A stretch of 64,000 nt of DNA, taken from assembly GCA_035999335.1 (NCBI GenBank), contig DASYGV010000086.1, positions 66,991-130,990 on the forward strand. Reading direction: 5' to 3'. The position numbers and the translations under genes are program-made. This document shows positions 1 through 14,430 of this stretch, in pieces. The notes beneath the pieces were generated by a model. That model saw nothing but the letters and a program-made list of their open reading frames with translations, had not been told where the DNA came from and made no database searches. This stretch comes from Thermoanaerobaculia bacterium. Its GTDB lineage: Bacteria > Acidobacteriota > Thermoanaerobaculia > Gp7-AA8. Each line of letters starts with the position of its first letter. The first letter of the stretch is position 1.

Positions 1-623
1 ACGGCGCGGAAGTCATCGTCGAGTCGCCTCGTCACGAGGAGTCGTTCGCGACGATCGAGCACGCGGAGGATGTCGTGCGCATGTACGCCGATCGCTACCG
101 CGCGCATGCCGATGCGGTGTACGTGTCGATTTTCAAGAACGAAGGGACGCGAGCGGGCGCGTCGATCCCGCACGTCCACTCGCAGGTCGTGCCGCTGCCA
201 TTTGTGCCGCCGCGGATCGAGCGGGAGCTGGAGGGGTTCGCGAGAGGGTGTCCATTGTGTGAGTCGCCCCATTCCCTCATTCGCGAGACCGACTCCTTCC
301 TCTGGCTCGCGCCCTTCGCCTCCGCGTTCGCGTATCAGCAGTGGATCGTGCCGAAGCGGCACGTGCATGAGATCAGCGCACTCGATGAGCACGAGTTGCG
401 CGAGCTCGCATTGCTCCTGCGCGCGGCGTCGGCATCCACGCAAAAAATCACGAGCGCCTTCAACTGGATGTTGATGAACTTTCCGCGCGCGACTGCCGCG
501 CATTTTTACGTCGATCTCATCCCTCGCATGGCCGCGATTGCAGGATTCGAGCTGAACACGGGCACGTTTGTCGAGATCATCGATCCCGCCGCTGCCGCGC
601 GGCGCTTGCGCGAGATGGAATGA
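1..623 (+). CDS. galactose-1-phosphate uridylyltransferase-like / HIT-superfamily protein, 5' partial (continues upstream of the window)
   Basis: The frame is open from base 3. It carries an HVHSQVV motif (H-x-H-x-Q) and a CPLCE Cys pair, typical of the GalT/HIT nucleotidyl transferase fold. Confidence 0.5.
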   Translation, partial: GAEVIVESPRHEESFATIEHAEDVVRMYADRYRAHADAVYVSIFKNEGTRAGASIPHVHSQVVPLPFVPPRIERELEGFARGCPLCESPHSLIRETDSFLWLAPFASAFAYQQWIVPKRHVHEISALDEHELRELALLLRAASASTQKITSAFNWMLMNFPRATAAHFYVDLIPRMAAIAGFELNTGTFVEIIDPAAAARRLREME

Positions 624-629
624 TCGTGA

Positions 630-2120
630 TCACCGCCAGTGCTTGACCTTCGGCCACAGCTCCGGCAGCGGCGTCTTCAATCCGCGTCCGTGGAAGATCG
701 GCGAGTTCTCCCACGGCATTGCGTACGGGTGATCCCGCTCGTCCACCTTCACCAGCGAAGTCCATAACTCCTCGTCGGGATCGGGATCGTCGTCGAGCAG
801 GATTACGGACTCGCCGGTGTAGCCGCGCGGTCCCCAGAAGAAGTAGTTCTGATGACCGCTGATCGCCGGCGGCAGACCATACTTCGGTCCGTAGAAATCG
901 ATCGCCCCCGCCTCGCCGTAATTGCCGCAGAAGATCGCAGTCTTCGCGCGCTCTGCCGGCGGAAGCGAGTGGTAGTGGCGAGCGACCTTCGCGACCGTCT
1001 CTTCCCATCCGAACTGGTCCGCGAACAGTTGCGGCAACTCCGAGGTGTGCGAGACCTCGGTCGCCTGCGGCTTGATGCCGAGCGCGCGTTGATACGCGCG
1101 GTAGCGCGGCGGCGGGAGTATCGGCGTCGCGAGCGGGAGCGAGATCAATCCGCCGGCGACGACGAGCACGAAGACGCCGGCGTACACAACGCGGCGTAGC
1201 GACGCGAACCACACCGCGCCGGCAGCAAGCAGCACCGGATAGATCGGCGCGACGTAGTAATCCTTCCCCTCGAGGCGGATGAAGAGCGCGAGCACGACGA
1301 CGTACGTCCAGGCGAGCACGCGATACTCGCGTTTGCGGAACAGCCAGACCAGCCCCGCGATCCAGAGCGGCGCGAGGAACGGGTTGAGCATCATCGTTTG
1401 CTGGACCATGAACGCACCCGGTGCGAGGACGACGTTCTTCCCGGTTTCTTTCACGTTGCGCAGCAGCTCGAGCGTCGGGAAGTCGCGCTGGATCTGCCAG
1501 ATCAGATTCGGCAGGAAGATCAGGAGCGCGATTGCGCCGCCGATCCAGATCCACGGCCGCGCGAGCGAGCGGCGCATCGGCGTGAAGAGCATCGCGATCG
1601 CGAGCGCCGCGCCGAGGAAGACCATCGAGTGCTTGTTCTGCAATCCGAGGCCGGCGAACACGCCGAACGCGATCCACCATTTCTCGCTCGCGCCGTTCGC
1701 GATCTCGATCACGACGAGCAGACACGCGAGCCAGAAGAGATGCTCGAACGTATTCATGCTCAGGATCGAGTCGAGGCCGAGGTAAATCGGCGCAAGCAAA
1801 ACCGCCGTGCAAGCGAGAGCCTGCGCCGCGCGGCCGCCGCCAAGCCGCGCCGTGATGACGCCGGTGAGAATGACGCGCAGCGTGCCCGAAAGCGTCGCGA
1901 GAAAACGGAACCCGCGCAACGAGCCGCCGAGCTGCTCGCCTATCCACGCGTAGATCGCTACGAGCGGCGGATGATCGACGTATCCCCAGTCGAGATGCCG
2001 TCCACAGGCGATGAAGTACAGCTCATCGCGGAAGTAGTGGTAGAAGCCGGAAGCGTAGAGAGTGAACGCAAACTTGAGAGCGGCGATCGTGAGAATGACG
2101 AGCCACGCGGGTCTGCGCAT
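630..2120 (-). CDS. GT39-family membrane glycosyltransferase (ArnT/PMT-like)
   Basis: 496 aa with multiple TM helices. The N-terminal DE..YF/HPPL pattern and overall architecture match dolichyl-phosphate-mannose-type/ArnT-like glycosyltransferases. Confidence 0.65.
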   Translation of the reverse strand: MRRPAWLVILTIAALKFAFTLYASGFYHYFRDELYFIACGRHLDWGYVDHPPLVAIYAWIGEQLGGSLRGFRFLATLSGTLRVILTGVITARLGGGRAAQALACTAVLLAPIYLGLDSILSMNTFEHLFWLACLLVVIEIANGASEKWWIAFGVFAGLGLQNKHSMVFLGAALAIAMLFTPMRRSLARPWIWIGGAIALLIFLPNLIWQIQRDFPTLELLRNVKETGKNVVLAPGAFMVQQTMMLNPFLAPLWIAGLVWLFRKREYRVLAWTYVVVLALFIRLEGKDYYVAPIYPVLLAAGAVWFASLRRVVYAGVFVLVVAGGLISLPLATPILPPPRYRAYQRALGIKPQATEVSHTSELPQLFADQFGWEETVAKVARHYHSLPPAERAKTAIFCGNYGEAGAIDFYGPKYGLPPAISGHQNYFFWGPRGYTGESVILLDDDPDPDEELWTSLVKVDERDHPYAMPWENSPIFHGRGLKTPLPELWPKVKHWR

Positions 2121-2186
2121 GTCGGCTTCTACTGGGGCGCGGGCATCTTGCCCGCGCGCGGGCGGGCAGGATGCCCGCCCCCCTTA

Positions 2187-2948
2187 CTACTTGAGTCCCT
2201 GCTCCAGATGCTCGTACGCCTGCTGCAGGTTGTCGCTGCGCGACTTCACCTCGGCGAACGCATCGCGCCAGATCAGACCGACGCGCTGGATATTGCGCTC
2301 GCGGAGTCCGAACAGCACTTCGCGGAGCGCGTCGGCTTCGGCGCCCGAGAGGTCGGGACGCGCGACCTCGCGCTCGAGCAGCGACTGCGCGAGGCGGAGA
2401 TGCTCCTCATCACTCGGCGCTTGCGCGGTTGGCGCGGTCATGGCCGGGATCTTCATCGTCGTCGGACGGTCGGCCGTGATCTCACGCTGCAGGCCCGGCT
2501 GCGTGCCGCCCATGTCCACCGCGCCCGGGAGCTCCTTGAGCTGCGGACTGAACTTGCCCATCATGAAGAACAGCTCTTTCTCGTTGGCGAAGTTGCCGAC
2601 GAGACGCGCGCTCTTCGCGAGCTCGAGGTGCTCTGACTCCTGGAGCATGATGAACGCGCGGGCGCGGTCCTCGAGAGCGATGCGCTTGGCGTGGACCTTC
2701 CACGCGGTGAGCGTGCCCTGGATGAAGCACGCTTGGCCGGCGCGGATGCTCACCGCTTCGACCGTGACGTTCTCCTCGATGCGGATCGAGCCGTTGGTCG
2801 ACTCGATCTCGGAGTAAATCCCCGAGTTCTGGATGACGAGATTTCCTGGGGTTTTGATGGAGAGTTGTCCGTGCGCGTTGACCCGAATCTCGGTCCCGCG
2901 CGGGATGATCATCGTCGGGAAATTTGCCTGATCTGCGGCTGCACTCAT
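2187..2948 (-). CDS. bactofilin-like polymer-forming cytoskeletal protein with extended C-terminus
   Basis: The real start is MSAAADQ; the upstream Arg-rich part of the 619-aa ORF is discarded. Repetitive beta-helix-like segments (GTEIRVNAHGQLSIKT, GIYSEIESTNGSIRIEENVTVEA) are typical of the bactofilin DUF583 core. Its ATG overlaps the stop of the upstream M23 peptidase (ATGA). Confidence 0.5.
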   Translation of the reverse strand: MSAAADQANFPTMIIPRGTEIRVNAHGQLSIKTPGNLVIQNSGIYSEIESTNGSIRIEENVTVEAVSIRAGQACFIQGTLTAWKVHAKRIALEDRARAFIMLQESEHLELAKSARLVGNFANEKELFFMMGKFSPQLKELPGAVDMGGTQPGLQREITADRPTTMKIPAMTAPTAQAPSDEEHLRLAQSLLEREVARPDLSGAEADALREVLFGLRERNIQRVGLIWRDAFAEVKSRSDNLQQAYEHLEQGLK

Positions 2949-4000
2949 CACGACCTCCTCTTCCCACCCATAACACTCCCACCACTCGCAGCGCCCACGA
3001 AGGCCGACGGCAGCGGTTCGAAGTTCCTGTAGTCCTTGCTCGTGCGCGCGCGCATGAGCAGCAGGGCTTCGTTGCTCCACTGATAATTGAGGATGTAGAT
3101 GCGCGGATCGATCGGGACGTACGTCCCGGGCTGTTCGAGATCGCTGCGGATCTCGTAGTGCAGGTGAGCGTTCGTGCTCCAGCCGGTGTTGCCCACCGTG
3201 GCGATCACCTCGCCCTGCTGCACTCTCTGGCCAGCTCTGACTCGAACCGTGTCGCAGTGCGCGTAGATCGTGACGAAGCGGTCCGCGTGCTTGATCGTGA
3301 CGACGTTGCCGAAGCGCCACCAGGCGACGCTCTGCCGGATCGGATAGCGTCCCGCGAACGTGACCACGCCGTCGGCCGTCGCGTAGACCGCGGTGCCGGT
3401 CGGCGCGGAGAGGTCGAGTCCCTTGTGAAAGTCGGTCGCGCGCGTGAACGGCGAGACCCGATTGCCGAACGGCGAGGTCAGGACGAAGCGATCGTCGGGA
3501 ACCGGCAGGATCGACGGCGTGTGCCGGACGAGCTCGCGGTTCGCGGCCTCGTAGGCGGCCAGGACGTCGAGCTGCTGCTGCAGCCGGCGCATCGCGTTCT
3601 TCAGCGAGATTTCGCGGCGGCGGGCATCGTCGAGCGGCACGTCGGCGATGCGGTTGGGCGTGGAGAAACCGCCCTGGCCGAGGGTGCGGTCGAGACCGTA
3701 GACGGTGATGAGCTTCTCGACGCGGATGCGATGCTCTTCCAGGCTGCGCTCGAGGGAAGTCATCTGGACGACGTTCTCGCGCAATCGCTCGCGCTGGATG
3801 CCGCGCTCCTGGCGCTGCTGGTAGAGGTAGTTCGTCTTGTAAACGCGGCGGATGACCGTCGGCGCGGCGGCCATCGATCCGATCAAACCCGCGAGCACGA
3901 ACGACAGGACGATCAGTCCCACAACCACCCGGCGGCGGTCCAGAAAAAAGTACCGCACACGCCGGCGGATGTCGCTCGGATGGATCTGAATTTCGATCAT
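2948..4000 (-). CDS. M23-family metallopeptidase (LytM/peptidoglycan endopeptidase-like) with N-terminal TM and coiled-coil region
   Basis: HKGLDL...TIYAHCD...GNTGWSTNAHLHYEI are the canonical M23 Zn-binding motifs (HxxxD, HxH). An N-terminal TM helix is followed by a coiled coil. Confidence 0.85.
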   Translation of the reverse strand: MIEIQIHPSDIRRRVRYFFLDRRRVVVGLIVLSFVLAGLIGSMAAAPTVIRRVYKTNYLYQQRQERGIQRERLRENVVQMTSLERSLEEHRIRVEKLITVYGLDRTLGQGGFSTPNRIADVPLDDARRREISLKNAMRRLQQQLDVLAAYEAANRELVRHTPSILPVPDDRFVLTSPFGNRVSPFTRATDFHKGLDLSAPTGTAVYATADGVVTFAGRYPIRQSVAWWRFGNVVTIKHADRFVTIYAHCDTVRVRAGQRVQQGEVIATVGNTGWSTNAHLHYEIRSDLEQPGTYVPIDPRIYILNYQWSNEALLLMRARTSKDYRNFEPLPSAFVGAASGGSVMGGKRRS

Positions 4001-4074
4001 GGCACGAACCCGCGCGGGCCAACGCGCGGGTCAGGCAGTTTAGCACAGGGAAATGTGCACAGGAATCGGTGCAG

Positions 4075-4165
4075 CGGAGCGCCGGGCTTCCAGCCGGCCG
4101 CTACGCCGCCTTCCAGGCGGCCGGCAGGGATGCCGGCGGAGCGGCCGGCTGGAAGCCGGCGCGCC
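4075..4165. repeat. about 90-bp palindromic intergenic element (REP/MITE-like), copy 1
   Basis: Arms ggcttccagccggccgct ... agcggccggctggaagcc are reverse complements. A near-identical copy lies at 18680-18790. Confidence 0.7.
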
Positions 4166-4173
4166 TTTGTGCC

Positions 4174-4255
4174 TACTCGACAGGCACGGTGCGCTTGGTG
4201 AATCGCTTGACCACCAGCGGCAGCAGCGTGATCGCGAGCATCAGCGCGTTCATCG
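4174..4255 (-). pseudogene. orphan duplicate of a dedA-family gene 3' end (27 codons, MNALMLAITLLPLVVKRFTKRTVPVE*)
   Basis: About 85% nucleotide identity to 5445-5500, the true dedA 3' end (…CALMLAITLLPLAVKRFTKREAPVVE*). Its ATG overlaps the stop of the TIR gene (ATGA). Confidence 0.5.
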
Positions 4256-4912
4256 ATAGACCCTGGCCCTCTGTTCTTCGATCAACTGCAATTTGATGGC
4301 GGCGGCGTCGATTTCTGACGCAATCAGAGCGGCGATTGCCGGCTCAATGCCGGGTTCAACTACGCGTCGCCAGTATTTCTCGAGCCAGACTGGCGGCTCC
4401 ACCGGTTCCTCCAAGAGGACATACACCGACGCGTGCTGTGGATCGCCGTAATTGTGAATGACGGATGCGATGAACGCCTCTGCCTGGCAGATTGCGCTCC
4501 GCAGGCTATTCGATGAGATCAAGAACAGCACTGCTGAACATCGACGAATAGTGGCCTCGATTCGCTCACTGGCTCCTGGAAAATCGCGCTGGAAGCCTCG
4601 GATTTGATCGATGACGTCGGTGTCTCTGTTGTACGTGTGCTCCTCGGACTCGTCGTTGGGGGTGTAACGCCACGGTTCGAGGCCAGCCGCGCGAAACGCT
4701 TCTTCGAAGGCGCTCGCTCTCTCGAACGACTCACGAGGAAATGAGAGAAACACCCGTCGACCGAACTTCGGTCCCTCTAGGTAGTCGGCGCGTGCGGGGT
4801 CATCGGCTTTGTACAGGAATCCGTTGATCTTTCCGTCTGAATCTTTCCGTGTCGATGACCACACGAATCGGATTGCCTCGATCCAGCCCATAAGCCATCG
4901 TATTGGGTTCAC
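4252..4912 (-). CDS. TIR-domain protein
   Basis: RRVFLSFPRES (box1-like VFLSY), AVLFLISSNSLRSAICQAE and ASVYVLLEEP(V)E match the TIR / TIR-like flavodoxin-fold pattern. The gene lies in a lower-GC (about 55%) segment. Confidence 0.55.
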
Positions 4913-5016
4913 AACGGCAGCTTACGCGGGCCGCGTAGTTCCAAGCCACGTTCCTCCGCCTCGACGAAGCCAAACCCGGCGCCACGGAACCGAAATTGGC
5001 TGCAACCGAGCCAGAT

Positions 5017-5400
5017 TTAGCTCCGCAGATGCGATCGGCCGGGTCGAGAAAGCGATTGATCTCTTCGACCAAGAGAGCTTTCTCTTCGACCAAGAAAGCT
5101 TTCTCTTCGATCAAAGAGATCCTTCCCTTCGATCAAGAGATCTTTCTCTTCGACCAAGAGAGCCTTCCCTTCGACCAAGAGATCTTTCCCTTCGACCAAG
5201 AGATCTTTCCCTTCGATCAAGAGATCTTTCCCTTCGATCAAGAGATCTTTCTCTTCGGGCAAGAGATCTTTATCTTCGTCAAAGAGATCTTTCTCTTCGT
5301 CAAAGGGATCGATCTTTTCATCGAAGAGATCGATGGCTTCGTCTCGGACCCCGTTTTCTTCCTGAAAGAGGTAGGAAAGTTGATCTTTCTCTTCGGGCAC
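5017..5400 (-). CDS. acidic heptad-repeat protein (…LLIEGKD LLVEGKD… x about 10), hypothetical
   Basis: The minus-strand frame through the 21-bp array gives a clean (EGKDLLV)n heptad repeat. It is co-oriented with, and immediately upstream of, the TIR gene, and starts 22 bp after the dedA stop. The plus-strand frames (FDQEIFP / RDLSLRS repeats) are less protein-like. Coding status is uncertain. Confidence 0.3.
   Translation of the reverse strand: MPEEKDQLSYLFQEENGVRDEAIDLFDEKIDPFDEEKDLFDEDKDLLPEEKDLLIEGKDLLIEGKDLLVEGKDLLVEGKALLVEEKDLLIEGKDLFDRRESFLGRRESSLGRRDQSLSRPGRSHLRS
5067..5340. repeat. 21-bp tandem repeat array, about 13 copies (consensus ttcgaccaagagatctttccc)
   Basis: Directly visible head-to-tail units with point variants. 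The period is 21 bp, which equals 7 codons and about two helical turns. Confidence 0.9.
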
Positions 5401-5421
5401 GAGATCGACGAGGGTGGCCGC

Positions 5422-6111
5422 TTATTCGACGACGGGCGCTTCGCGTTTCGTGAATCGCTTGACGGCCAGCGGGAGAAGCGTAATCGCGAGCATGAGCGCG
5501 CACACGATCAGCAGCCGCTTCGCGGCGTCCCCCTCGGTCATCGAGCCATTGAACAGCGCGTCCGCGGAGTAAGCGAAGACGAAGATCGACGGGATCACGC
5601 CGACGAACGTCGACAAGAAGAAGTCGCGCACGCGCACGCCCGCGACACCCGCGCCGTAGTTGAGGACCGCGAACGGAATGCCGGGGATGAAGCGGAGCGC
5701 GAGGAGCGAGCCGAAGCTCGCGTGATCGACCTGCTTCGCGACCGCGCGGCCGACGCGGCCGAATTTCTCGAGCATCCCCTCCCCCACGAAACGCCCGAGG
5801 TAGAACGACGCGAGCGCGCCGAGGATGCCGCCGACGATCGAGTAGACGCTGCCGAGGAGCCATCCCCAGATGAAGCCCGCCGCCAGGATGAACAGCGACG
5901 CCGGCAAGGCGAACACGCACGCGAGCACGAACGCGCCGATGAAGATCGCCGGGCCGTACCAGACGCCGCGCAAATGCTCGACGAACAGGCGCACGTTTTC
6001 GCGCGTGATGTGCTCGCGCGCAGGCGAGAAATAGATCGCCACGACGGCTGCCGCGAGCAGCACGAAGATCGCGATCTTGACGAGCGTGCGGCGCGACAAC
6101 GTTCGCAACAT
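5422..6111 (-). CDS. DedA / SNARE-associated (TVP38/TMEM64) family membrane protein
   Basis: Start MLRTLS (upstream Arg-rich extension trimmed). It is multi-TM, with a GxxxG-rich G(I/V)PxxxxNYxAG DedA signature in ALRFIPGIPFAVLNYGAGVAGV. Confidence 0.8.
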   Translation of the reverse strand: MLRTLSRRTLVKIAIFVLLAAAVVAIYFSPAREHITRENVRLFVEHLRGVWYGPAIFIGAFVLACVFALPASLFILAAGFIWGWLLGSVYSIVGGILGALASFYLGRFVGEGMLEKFGRVGRAVAKQVDHASFGSLLALRFIPGIPFAVLNYGAGVAGVRVRDFFLSTFVGVIPSIFVFAYSADALFNGSMTEGDAAKRLLIVCALMLAITLLPLAVKRFTKREAPVVE

Positions 6112-6355
6112 CAGGGCAGCACCTGGACCTGCGTGCCGAGACCGTACGTCCGCAACACCACGCGGAAGGCGGTCTCGCACGGCACTTCGCGGAAGTAGAA
6201 CGTCGCCGCGGTTTTGGACTTGTCCACGTCCGGATCGAGGATCAGGTTTTTGATCCCGCACTGCTTCTGCATCTCCCGAAGCACGACGCGAGGCTCGGCG
6301 TCCTTGAGGTCGAGCGTCACCGTGCGCGCGGAGACCACGGCGGCGAGAATCAGCG
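6111..6355 (-). CDS. small exported protein with secretin-N0/STN-like motif
   Basis: GTG start 6 bp after the thiolase stop, with a hydrophobic N-terminus (ILSLILAAVVSA). LDLKDAEPRVVLREMQKQCGIKNLILDPDVDKSKTAATFYFREVPCETAFRVVLRTYGLG resembles the PilQ N0 / STN consensus (F.DADLRDVLR.LAE.SGLNIV..P.V.GKVTL.L.NVPWDQAL). Confidence 0.35.
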
Positions 6356-6361
6356 AAAGGA

Positions 6362-7540
<1,179 letters not shown>

Positions 7541-7595
7541 GTTTGTAGTGCTCCTTTTGCCGCGTCTCCAAACGCGGCGCGGGGGGATGATATTC

Positions 7596-7690
7596 GGGCT
7601 GAAGAGTCGCAAAGTCGCAAAGTCTCAAAGTCGCAAAGAGGGCGGGTCCGACGGCCTTTGCGACTTTGCGACTTTGAGACTTTGCGACTC
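7596..7690. repeat. 35-bp-stem palindrome built from tandem 8-mers (gtcgcaaa x4 / tttgcgac x4)
   Basis: gagtcgcaaagtcgcaaagtctcaaagtcgcaaag - loop - ctttgcgactttgcgactttgagactttgcgactc. It overlaps the last codons of the CPBP protease gene (…ESQSLKVAKSQRP…). Confidence 0.85.
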
Positions 7691-8452
7691 CGCCGGCTCC
7701 CAACGCCGCAGCCACAGGATGCCGGCGACCTCGGCCACCGTCATCCAGATGCTCCCTTCGATGCCGAACTCCCCTCCGGTCAACCACCACGGGCCTTGGC
7801 CGCGCTCGACGAAGACCGTGGCCATCGCGTCGTAGCCGCTGACCTCGTGTCCGAGGATCGGACCGGACATCACGTTCCACGCGAGATGCAGCCCGATCGG
7901 GAGCCACAGACGCCCGTACTTCTCGTACGCGAGCCCAAGCAGAACGCCGCCGAGGAACACGTTCGTGAGGCCGATCCACGACACGGCCGCGTTGCCCGCG
8001 TGAAGCGCCGCGAAGACGAGGGCGACGAACAACAGTGCGAAGCCGCGGTGCCAGCGATGGAGTTTCTGGAATGCATAGCCGCGGAACAACAACTCCTCGT
8101 GGACCGCCGCCGGGAGAAAGACCATGAAGATCTCGAGCCACGGGAATCCAGCGCCGCGCTCGTGCGAAAGGTCCGTCGAGAGGATGACTAGGGCCGCGCA
8201 CATGCTGATCAGGACGACTCCGAACGCGGTGCCGTAGAGAAACTCCGGCACGGCGAGACGTGGCGAGACGAAGAGGCCGAGCGGCCAACGTCCGCGATCC
8301 CAGATCGCGACGGTTGCCGCGGTGGCGACGCCGACGGAGAGGAGTGCCATCCAATGGACGAACGGAAAACGAAGCCACGACAAAACGATGAGTGTGGCAA
8401 CATAGAAACAAACGAACAATGCAAGCGGTGCCACAACGCGGTCGAGCGCGGC
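7625..8452 (-). CDS. CPBP-family intramembrane glutamic endopeptidase (CAAX protease-like)
   Basis: EELLFRG, FxxxH and HxxxN motifs in a multi-TM protein. The start is uncertain; a GTG near 8452 is proposed after trimming an Arg-rich extension. Confidence 0.7.
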   Translation of the reverse strand, partial: AALDRVVAPLALFVCFYVATLIVLSWLRFPFVHWMALLSVGVATAATVAIWDRGRWPLGLFVSPRLAVPEFLYGTAFGVVLISMCAALVILSTDLSHERGAGFPWLEIFMVFLPAAVHEELLFRGYAFQKLHRWHRGFALLFVALVFAALHAGNAAVSWIGLTNVFLGGVLLGLAYEKYGRLWLPIGLHLAWNVMSGPILGHEVSGYDAMATVFVERGQGPWWLTGGEFGIEGSIWMTVAEVAGILWLRRWEPAESQSLKVAKSQRPSDPPSLRL

Positions 8453-8476
8453 CACGCGCTGCTTGAAGGAGGCCGC

Positions 8477-8953
8477 ATGAACAGGATCGCCGCCGACGTC
8501 GCCGCGCTGCTGTTGCGCGTCGTCGCGGGATTGATCTTCCTTCCCCACGGCTGGTCGAAGATCGCCGGCGAGGGAGGCTCCACCGCGTTCGCCGCCGGAT
8601 TGGCCGAGGGCTACGGCATTCCGCTGTTCCTCGGACACCTCGCGGCGTACGTCGAGGTCATCGGCTCCGTCCTGCTCCTCCTCGGATTGCTCACCCGTCT
8701 CGATGCGCTCCTCCTGGCCGGCACGATGTTCGTGGCGGCCTTCGTGGTCCAGCTTCCCGATGCGTTGTTCGAGGTCCCGCCGAATGCTATCAAGGCTTTC
8801 GCGGTCATTCGCGGGATCGAGACCCCGCTCGCGATGTTCGCGATCTGCTGCGCGCTCGTGCTCACCGGCGGCGGGCGCTTCTCGCTCGATTCCGTGCTGC
8901 GGAATCGGTTCGGCAAAAAGAAAACGGCGGCCGAAGCCGCCGCTGTCACGTAG
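8477..8953 (+). CDS. DoxX-family membrane protein
   Basis: Start MNRIAADVAALLLRVVAGLIFLPHGWSKI. This is the typical DoxX pattern (LR..LG..F...G..K; E..G..LLLLGL.TR). Confidence 0.75.
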   Translation: MNRIAADVAALLLRVVAGLIFLPHGWSKIAGEGGSTAFAAGLAEGYGIPLFLGHLAAYVEVIGSVLLLLGLLTRLDALLLAGTMFVAAFVVQLPDALFEVPPNAIKAFAVIRGIETPLAMFAICCALVLTGGGRFSLDSVLRNRFGKKKTAAEAAAVT

Positions 8954-8975
8954 GACGGGCTTCAGCCCGTCTCCG

Positions 8976-9413
8976 TTACTGCCCGATCGCCGCGGCCGCG
9001 CCGCCCGCCATCGGGTCTTCGACGATGATGCCGATGTTCTTCGCGCCGCTGGCGCGGGCGAGATCGAGGAACTTCATCGTCGCCTCGTAGTCGACATCGC
9101 GTCCGCCCGAGAAGAACACCATCTTGGAAGAGTTCCCGCGAAGGATCTCGCGGATCCGGTTGGGGAACTGCTCCATCGTCATCTCTTCCTTGTTGATCAG
9201 CACACGCGGACCCGCGATGAGACGCAGGACGATCTGGTCCTGCACCGCGGACGGCGGGATGCCGGGCGGCGCTTTGGGCGGAACCTTCACGAGATAGCCC
9301 ATCTGAATGACCGGCGTGAGGACCATGAAGATGATCAGGAGCACGAGAACAACGTCCACCAACGGTGTGACGTTGATCTCCGACCGCATCGAACCACTGC
9401 CACCTACTTGCAT
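8976..9413 (-). CDS. exbD: biopolymer transport protein ExbD/TolR
   Basis: Diagnostic ExbD N-terminus (INVTPLVDVVLVLLIIFMV); about 145 aa. Confidence 0.85.
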   Translation of the reverse strand: MQVGGSGSMRSEINVTPLVDVVLVLLIIFMVLTPVIQMGYLVKVPPKAPPGIPPSAVQDQIVLRLIAGPRVLINKEEMTMEQFPNRIREILRGNSSKMVFFSGGRDVDYEATMKFLDLARASGAKNIGIIVEDPMAGGAAAAIGQ

Positions 9414-13235: not shown

Positions 13236-14430
13236 GCTCGAGGATGTGCCCCAGCTTCGTCTTCTTCGCCTCGAGATACTTCCGCGTCGTCTGCGACGGC
13301 GCGATCTCGAGCGGGACGCGCTCGACGATCTGGAGGCCGAAGCCTTCGATCGCCACGAACTTGGCCGGGTTGTTGGTCATCAGGCGGATCTTGCGGACGC
13401 CGAGGTCGCGGAGGATCTGCGAGCCGGTGCCGTAGTCGCGAATGTCGGGGGCGAAGCCGAGCTTCGCGTTCGCCTCGATCGTGTCCGCGCCGGCGTCCTG
13501 CAGCTCGTACGCGCGCAGCTTGTTGATCAAACCGATGCCGCGGCCTTCCTGCAGAAGATAGAGGATGATCCCCTTCCCTTCCTGTTCGATCAGCGCGAAC
13601 GCGCGCTCGAGCTGATCGCCGCAGTCACAGCGGCTGGAATGGAAGACGTCGCCGGTGAGACACGACGAGTGCACGCGCACGAGCACTTCATCGTCCTCGG
13701 AGATCTCGCCCTTCACCAGCGCGACGTGCTCTTCACCGGTGATGTCGCTCTGGTAGGCGTGCACGCGGAACTCGCCGTGCTCGGTCGGAAGCACGGGCGC
13801 CGCGAGGCAGTGCACGTGCTTCTCGTTGTGCATCCTGTATTTGATGATGTCGGCGACGGAGATGATCTTCAGGCCGTGACGGACGGCGAACTCGCGCAAG
13901 TCCGGCAGGCGCGCCATCGTGCCGTCCTCGTTCATGATCTCGCAGATGACCGCCGCGGGCGTCATGCCCGCGATGAGCGCGAGATCGACCGAGGCCTCGG
14001 TCTGCCCCGCGCGCTTGAGCACTCCGCCCTTCTTCGCGCGCAACGGGAACACATGCCCCGGACGCGCGAGGTCGTGCGGCCGCGTCTTCGGATCGATCGC
14101 GACGCGCACGGTCTCGGAGCGATCGAACGCGGAGATGCCGGTGGTCACTCGGCCTCGCGCCTCGATCGACACCGTGAATGCCGTGCCGAAGTTCGTGGTG
14201 TTGTTCTCGACCATCAGCGGGAGGTCGAGCTCTTTGCACCGCTCCTCGGTGAGCGCGAGACAGATCAGTCCCCGCCCGAACTTCGCCATGAAGTTGATCG
14301 TCTCGGGCGTGACCCGCTCCGCCGCGATGCAGAGATCTCCCTCGTTCTCGCGGTCTTCGTCATCGACGATGATGACCAGCTCCCCGCGGCGATAGAGCTC
14401 GGCGGCTTCCTGAATGTTGGCGAACGGCAT
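13228..14430 (-). CDS. ribBA: bifunctional 3,4-dihydroxy-2-butanone-4-phosphate synthase / GTP cyclohydrolase II
   Basis: N-terminal DHBP synthase motifs ([11 protein letters not shown]) and the C-terminal GCH-II Zn site (CxxGxxxxSxRCDCG); 400 aa. Confidence 0.9.

Follow-up and report, generated by a model that had tools for sequence, protein, structure and literature searches.

The stretch of DNA considered here, referred to as the window, comprises 64,000 nucleotides of contig DASYGV010000086.1 from a Thermoanaerobaculia bacterium of the phylum Acidobacteriota. Near its beginning, two genes of the minus strand overlap at their junction. The first encodes a metallo-endopeptidase of the M23 family and the second a protein of 253 residues, which we call X. 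An initial annotation had described them as a translationally coupled peptidase and bactofilin, forming a candidate cell-shape module like that of Csd1 and CcmA in Helicobacter. As described below, the two genes are indeed coupled and are conserved together, and X is bactofilin-like by predicted structure while escaping recognition as a bactofilin by sequence.

The peptidase and X genes and their conservation

The two genes and their junction are arranged as follows.

2948..4000, minus strand: gene for an M23 (LytM-type) metallo-endopeptidase of 350 residues, from the open reading frame list and Pfam PF01551
2187..2948, minus strand: gene for X, 253 residues, bactofilin-like, with the stop codon TAG at 2187-2189
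2946..2959, minus strand: coupling junction AGGAGGtcgTGATG, with the Shine–Dalgarno sequence embedded in the peptidase gene and a single base common to the stop and start codons

The description of an M23 gene with HxxxD and HxH motifs followed by a co-oriented second gene was borne out, both lying on the minus strand (Pfam E = 7e-32 for the peptidase). The junction had also been correctly recognised as one of translational coupling, but its detail differs. A four-nucleotide ATGA overlap had been placed at 2946-2949, whereas in the minus-strand sequence, AGGAGGTCGTGATGAGT, the TGA stop codon of the peptidase gene occupies 2950-2948 and the ATG start codon of X 2948-2946, giving TGATG (2946-2950) and an overlap of a single nucleotide. 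The Shine–Dalgarno sequence of X, AGGAGG, is found at 2954-2959, within the peptidase gene. This sequence and the start codon of X are kept across the 82 Thermoanaerobaculia loci scored for junctions, where the spacing of the two genes is -1 nucleotide in 49 cases, -4 (a true ATGA) in nine, 0 in six and +1 in 14. The overlap of stop and start codons implies stoichiometric co-expression of the peptidase and X. Long overlapping frames are present on both strands across 2187-4046 and in the neighbouring sequence, among them a 619-residue frame running through X into the peptidase gene and antisense frames of 412-425 residues; these frames result from the high G+C content and are not genes.

The window copy of X is identical to a protein from a Thermoanaerobaculia metagenome-assembled genome. 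Its 2288 close homologues are all named hypothetical and none has a Pfam domain. A HMMER search of 1.84 billion representative proteins with an X-family profile returned only 115 clusters at 50% identity, and those that were checked include no ordinary bactofilins. A relative of X is encoded in at least 267 GTDB species genomes; the best 80 of these, on which the species-level locus counts given here are based, all belong to Thermoanaerobaculia or Acidobacteriota. A long subfamily of X is found in Candidatus Aminicenantes and candidate division B38. Judged from these searches, X belongs to a small, unannotated family confined to Acidobacteriota (Thermoanaerobaculia and Aminicenantes).

In 79 of the 80 species loci the gene immediately before X is an M23 orthologue; the remaining locus (L016) ends at a contig edge. 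The same arrangement is seen in five of the six distant relatives of X with usable upstream sequence (loci L086, L092, L089, L091 and L083). The M23 neighbour is kept for P0152, P0142 and P0165, whose N-terminal domains are ~38-51% identical to that of X, and for P0235 and P0220 of the long subfamily, which are ~23-27% identical to X. Conservation of the adjacency among relatives, which the initial annotation had proposed as a check on its claim, is thus found down to ~23-40% identity and in two classes. Downstream of X in the window is a gene for a PMT_2 glycosyltransferase, which more than half of the 80 loci lack, and the sequence beyond X is not conserved among relatives; the conserved unit is therefore the M23–X pair.

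A metagenomic protein of 215 residues, P0181, has residues 1-84 of X followed by the C-terminal half of an M23 peptidase. It was considered as a natural X–M23 fusion, and so as Rosetta-stone evidence, and was rejected because its domain order is opposite to the gene order; it is probably an assembly chimera.

Architecture of the peptidase and of X

The segments into which the two proteins divide are listed below, with model confidence given as the predicted local distance difference test score (pLDDT).

3929..4000, minus strand: predicted cytoplasmic tail of the peptidase, codons 1-24, MIEIQIHPSDIRRRVRYFFLDRRR, the proposed docking peptide for X
3860..3928, minus strand: single transmembrane helix of the peptidase, codons 25-47 (VVVGLIVLSFVLAGLIGSMAAAP), read from the sequence
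3140..3430, minus strand: catalytic M23 domain of the peptidase, residues 191-287, with HxxxD, His 248 and HxH intact
2583..2924, minus strand: PTMIIPxGT motif and predicted β-solenoid of X, residues 9-122, about six windings of ~17-18 residues
2532..2582, minus strand: conserved helix of X, EKELFFMMGKFSPQLKEL, residues 123-139, following the invariant G118-N-F120
2415..2528, minus strand: disordered linker of X, residues 141-178, variable in length and sequence, pLDDT <50
2193..2411, minus strand: C-terminal four-helix bundle of X, residues 180-252, pLDDT 85-92

The Pfam family Peptidase_M23 (PF01551) matches residues 191-287 of the peptidase with E = 7.4e-32. The motifs of this domain, HKGLD (H192 and D196), H248 and HLH (H279 and H281), are invariant in orthologues 35-46% identical to the window protein. 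As the zinc-binding and catalytic residues are present and invariant, we read the peptidase from its sequence as an active, catalytically intact hydrolase, not a LytM factor. Searches of NCBIfam with the peptidase gave domain-level matches only (DipM, ShyC, MepM and similar), all far under the cut-offs, and the nearest solved structures, which include Helicobacter pylori Csd1/Csd2 (5j1l, E = 9e-20), match over the M23 domain only.

The N-terminal transmembrane segment reported for the peptidase is also present, as an arginine-rich N-terminus followed by one hydrophobic helix at residues 25-47. Seven arginines lie upstream of this helix, and by the positive-inside rule such a tail implies an N-in topology. 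The peptidase is thus likely to be bitopic, with its tail in the cytoplasm and the remainder of the chain in the periplasm. Even in partners with no more than 35-46% overall identity, four residues of the tail (I4, H7, R13 and V15) do not vary, and the motif I-x-I-H-P-x-D/E-...-R-x-V is retained.

The X chain begins with MSAAADQANF, after which comes an invariant PTMIIPRGT (FPTMIIPRGT in the window). The family-wide form of this motif, PTMIIPxGT, spans residues 9-19 and contains the invariant residues P16 and G18. The solenoid that follows occupies approximately residues 20-120 and ends at the invariant G118-N-F120; G118 and F120 are invariant in both X subfamilies and E125 and L126 nearly so. 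An AlphaFold model of the N-terminal 145 residues, calculated from a diverse alignment, has a pLDDT of 88 and a predicted template modelling score of 0.77. The modelled strands lie within residues 20-120 and recur every 17-19 residues, with long strands starting at residues 43, 62, 79, 97 and 115, and the modelled helices at residues 123-139 come directly after the solenoid. Proteins of the long subfamily carry an insertion of exactly 51 residues (3 × 17) inside the β region, which provides independent support for a solenoid of 17-residue pitch. Autocorrelation of the hydrophobicity of X gave no clear peak at a period of 17-18 residues.

Comparison of this model with 350,542 PDB chains using Foldseek placed two bactofilins first: BacA from Caulobacter crescentus (2n3d; E = 0.035, probability 0.97) and TtBac from Thermus thermophilus (6rib; E = 0.085, probability 0.98, target-normalised template modelling score 0.58). 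Left-handed β-helix proteins matched far more poorly. By predicted structure the core of X is bactofilin-like, although the E values of these matches are weak. A first AlphaFold model of X, obtained from a shallow alignment (pLDDT 69), gave Foldseek matches to the C-terminal helices only, none of them significant, and was superseded by the model of the N-terminal domain.

The helical tail of about 150 residues ascribed to X is real as an atypical C-terminal extension, but it is nearer to 130 residues long and is made up of the helices at 123-139, a disordered linker and a four-helix bundle. The bundle is present in both X subfamilies, and its comparison with PDB folds gave no significant match, the nearest being unspecific helical bundles (3kav and 2qzg, E ~0.2). 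Neither a signal peptide nor a transmembrane segment is found in X, which places the protein in the cytoplasm.

The distribution of sequence constraint over the two proteins was assessed from the mean identity of each segment to the window proteins at 75 loci.

X solenoid: mean identity 93.6%
M23 cytoplasmic tail: mean identity 91.6%
M23 catalytic domain: mean identity 81.8%
M23 transmembrane helix: mean identity 76%
M23 periplasmic spacer: mean identity 76%
X C-terminal bundle: mean identity 66%
X linker: mean identity 42%

The solenoid and the tail head this list, so the two most constrained elements of the pair are those assigned to the cytoplasm. Consistent with this, the majority of X positions 9-141 are invariant in alignment A1. 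Stronger constraint on the tail than on the catalytic domain argues that the peptidase needs a cytoplasmic partner.

DNA surrounding the pair

A further conserved element precedes the peptidase gene.

4008..4073, minus strand: conserved promoter-like block upstream of the M23 start, from an alignment of 50 loci

Its parts are a palindrome, TGCAC-N8-GTGCA (4056-4073), and an invariant extended -10-like element, TGTGCTAAACT (4037-4047), and a GC leader hairpin at 4008-4031, where the mRNA is presumed to begin. When leaders were folded singly, a 5′ hairpin was obtained in 39 of 43 relatives, the sequences of the stems differing; RNAalifold found no consensus structure in the leader alignment because these stems are misaligned. 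A sigma-70 scan returned no site, no Shine–Dalgarno sequence precedes the M23 ATG, and an Rfam search over window positions 1-9000 gave no match. From its sequence, the block is a candidate promoter-like feature.

The flanking genes encode the PMT_2 glycosyltransferase, a HIT/GalT-like protein, a TIR-domain protein and a DedA/VTT protein. Within the 66-nucleotide gap between the X stop and the PMT_2 start, two adjacent perfect GC hairpins (GCGGGCA-NNN-TGCCCGC) are found at 2134-2183 on the minus strand, with a folding free energy of -47.6 kcal/mol, a z-score of -4.5 and no U-tract. L019 and L024 alone have similar hairpins, and a copy with one mismatch is present at 13955-13971. Between the TIR and DedA/VTT genes, at 5060-5331, lies a 21-bp tandem repeat of 12.9 copies with the partly palindromic consensus TCTCTTCGACCAAGAGATCTT; it is unique in the window and gives rise to heptad-repeat open reading frames in several frames.

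The interval between the DedA/VTT and M23 genes differs in its cargo between genomes. In the window it contains a TIR_2-domain protein (4250-4912, minus strand); in the relative L001 (465-8794) it extends over ~8.5 kb and encodes CHAT-TPR, S8 peptidase, SIR2, TIR/ThsA-macro, DUF1810 and Uma2 proteins. The interval resembles a site at which the defence genes vary.

In the long subfamily, the gene for P0218, within L087 (5347-7416) and L088, adjoins genes for the ATPase and platform proteins of a type IV pilus or type II secretion system, and a small zf-HC2 (anti-sigma-like) gene lies downstream. A small gene is also found immediately downstream of the gene for P0223 in L090.

Relation to bactofilin–M23 modules

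Adjacency of bactofilin and M23 genes has been described for 226 species (Pöhl et al., PMC10945521). In Hyphomonas neptunium and Rhodospirillum rubrum, LmdC is a bitopic DD-endopeptidase whose cytoplasmic β-hairpin binds the bactofilin BacA, and the pair controls morphogenesis (PMC10945521). The M23–X locus has the same order, a peptidase gene followed by that of a bactofilin or bactofilin-like protein, with stop and start overlapping. The window peptidase would also share the bitopic architecture of LmdC, in which a short cytoplasmic N-terminal tail and a single transmembrane helix precede a periplasmic spacer and intact M23 residues; its tail is strongly conserved, and the pattern I-x-I-[HR]...R-V-x-[FY]-F that it carries resembles the LmdC hairpin. 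A genuine example of LmdC is provided by locus L094, where a PF04519 bactofilin gene has a 14-nucleotide overlap with that of a 497-residue M23 protein bearing a DUF5930 region. The tail of this protein ends in ...RQIYIRSDGRVQFFTFS before its transmembrane helix, and is similar to its counterpart in the window peptidase, IEIQIHPSDIRRRVRYFFLD, which likewise leads into the transmembrane helix.

There are also differences. The window peptidase is 35% identical to its homologue in L094, over the M23 domain only. X, unlike BacA, falls under the PF04519 threshold, has both a helix after the solenoid and a four-helix bundle, and lacks an MFSK-type motif. The phylum of the M23–X pair, Acidobacteriota, is unmentioned in the main text of the LmdC–BacA paper (PMC10945521). 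By analogy, then, M23–X resembles LmdC–BacA in every testable feature, yet neither protein is a member of the corresponding family by sequence.

Canonical bactofilins form a right-handed β-helix of six windings of ~17 residues, flanked by disordered tails and carrying an N-terminal membrane-targeting motif (10.1101/617639). X is like these proteins (2n3d; 6ria/6rib; PF04519) in its predicted solenoid of ~100 residues, in windings of ~17-18 residues and in the recurrence of glycines between strands. It is unlike them in having structured flanks in place of disordered tails and a distinct invariant N-terminal motif, PTMIIPxGT.

The parallel first drawn with H. pylori Csd1/Csd2–CcmA holds in that an M23 gene adjoins that of a bactofilin-like protein. 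It is limited in that the window peptidase resembles these enzymes in the catalytic domain only. The Csd2 paralogue, Csd5 and Csd7 are the defining partners of the Helicobacter Csd1–CcmA locus. No second M23 (Csd2-like) gene is found in the 64-kb window, and the flanking genes include no other Csd-type partner. A conserved cytoplasmic tail is, moreover, a trait of LmdC and is not known for Csd1. LmdC–BacA is therefore the closer counterpart, with its bitopic peptidase and a tail more conserved than the catalytic domain.

Far-diverged relatives of bactofilins have a precedent in the halofilins, described as divergent archaeal bactofilin families acting in cell-shape control (PMC11459167). Going by that description, these are bactofilin-like shape proteins from another domain of life and of another architecture. 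We know of no M23 partner for halofilins.

We think it fairly probable that M23 and X form a bicistronic, translationally coupled morphogenetic module analogous to BacA–LmdC, in which X both scaffolds and docks the peptidase. The peptidase would consist of a 24-residue arginine-rich cytoplasmic tail, one transmembrane helix, a long helical periplasmic spacer and an active zinc-dependent M23 domain. X would self-associate beneath the membrane as a scaffold and bind the cytoplasmic tail of the peptidase. Docking of the tail on X would then fix the sites at which peptidoglycan cross-links are cut, so that local growth of the wall is shaped. The four-helix bundle, on its flexible linker of ~40 residues, may act as an extra adaptor or bundling domain, not present in canonical bactofilins, with a function such as recruitment, bundling or regulation. 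The dedicated morphogenetic module of the initial annotation survives here as a coupled, co-conserved pair with a predicted bactofilin-like fold; its bactofilin component is undetectable as such by sequence. Neither of the two outcomes that this annotation had named as refuting was obtained.

A number of results weigh against this assignment. A repetitive β-helical bactofilin core had been claimed for X, and the β-helix is predicted by AlphaFold, but in the hidden Markov model search that was to accompany this prediction X scores 13.6 bits (E = 0.081) against PF04519, for which the gathering score is 27.9. A weak but persistent signal does speak for the assignment: 18 of 55 X-family members give matches to PF04519 at E ≤ 0.1, all of them under the cut-off (the best at 23.6 bits, E = 6.1e-5), and every other Pfam family matches four of the 55 at most. 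X has no match in NCBIfam. Sequence and profile searches of the PDB with X and with alignments A2 and A6 gave nothing significant, TtBac appearing at E = 0.29. For profile–profile comparison, 120 PF04519 proteins were fetched and 34 aligned as a bactofilin reference, a narrow BacA-type set at least 56% identical to the probe. The BacA-type probe was approximate (at most 67% identical to any match) and was used only for retrieving PF04519 proteins. Comparison of A2, an alignment of the X family, with these 34 proteins using hhalign gave a weak match (probability 31.8%, E = 4.9e-4, 65 columns), and the same comparison with the long subfamily a probability of 4%. The Foldseek matches to bactofilins are themselves weak, with root-mean-square deviations of 6-8 Å at the E values given above. 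Two features of the X chain point in the same direction: it is without the canonical N-terminal membrane-targeting motif (consensus MFSKxK in the 34 bactofilins), and the conserved helix right after the last strand could, in the model, cap the C-terminal polymerisation face. DUF5930 (PF19353), which is recognised in the L094 protein at E = 1.3e-17, is absent from the window peptidase and three orthologues even at E ≤ 10. Finally, the long-subfamily protein P0218 (L087/L088) has no M23 neighbour.

Sequence methods thus do not identify X as a bactofilin. A profile search with the long subfamily directed at annotated bactofilins produced 14 matches, none with PF04519, and elsewhere in the 64-kb window neither a canonical bactofilin nor a paralogue of X was found.

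Given its post-solenoid helix and the absence of a membrane-targeting motif, X may plausibly not polymerise, an alternative that we regard as unlikely but not negligible. X would then be a regulator, stabiliser or anchor of the peptidase, its solenoid serving only as a platform for the tail and capped at its end by the helix at 123-139, with the four-helix bundle sensing or relaying a cytoplasmic signal that controls the stability or activity of the peptidase. Such a role would draw on the same synteny and conservation as the proposed module; it would also suit a protein that is structured where bactofilins have disordered tails and whose similarity to polymerising bactofilins is marginal by sequence. 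Near-invariance of the whole solenoid surface (93.6%) is, however, seen more typically in proteins that self-assemble than in simple adaptors, and the best structural matches of X are bactofilins that form filaments.

Slightly less probable, in our estimation, is that X founds a distinct, cytoskeleton-like family of the Acidobacteriota and is more than a diverged bactofilin, the members of this family forming a regulated scaffold nucleated by the client, unlike the constitutive filaments of canonical bactofilins. In such a family, the PTMIIPxGT strand and the post-solenoid helix would control the ends of the solenoid, the peptidase hairpin would trigger or template assembly by β-strand addition, and the four-helix bundle, on its tether, would bring in another factor for wall synthesis or regulation.

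That the adjacency is simply an operonic convenience we consider improbable. X would in this case serve PMT_2 or an unrelated cytoplasmic process, and its solenoid would be convergent and non-cytoskeletal. PMT_2 does follow X in the window and in about half of the close relatives, P0218 is encoded beside type IV pilus and type II secretion genes with no M23 gene, and the bactofilin homology of X is no more than putative. PMT_2 has been lost, however, from more than half of the 80 loci and M23 from none of them, and the M23–X pairing persists to ~23-40% identity in two classes. The stoichiometric co-expression implied by the stop–start overlap, and a tail under stronger constraint than the catalytic domain, also speak against it.

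Many long spurious open reading frames do occur on both strands of the region, but the idea that the frame at 2187-2948 is itself a chance product of GC-rich DNA is refuted by more than 2288 homologues with a domain-wise pattern of conservation, by relatives in 267 species genomes, by the conserved start codon and Shine–Dalgarno sequence of X and by a confident fold prediction, and we give it practically no credence.

Returning to the coupled module with X as scaffold, its wider interest lies in the fact that bactofilin–M23 modules are an emerging general principle for positioning peptidoglycan hydrolysis, and that surveys of them rely on recognising the bactofilin domain. The X family, with more than 2000 sequences and at least 267 species genomes of Acidobacteriota from soil and sediment, goes unseen by Pfam and NCBIfam. 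Its recognition would extend the bactofilin–M23 module to a major, poorly cultured phylum and give a set of hypothetical genes a testable function. The near-invariant 24-residue tail of the peptidase is an immediately testable candidate for the interaction determinant. X, as a natural variant that lacks the targeting motif and has an additional helix and a four-helix bundle, would also help to show which features of a bactofilin are needed for scaffolding and recruitment of the peptidase. The conserved pair would be a sequence-divergent, architecturally distinct and Acidobacteriota-specific variant of the bactofilin/M23 module, unsurprising in principle, so that a known type of cell-shape module probably exists in soil Acidobacteriota in a divergent form of their own.

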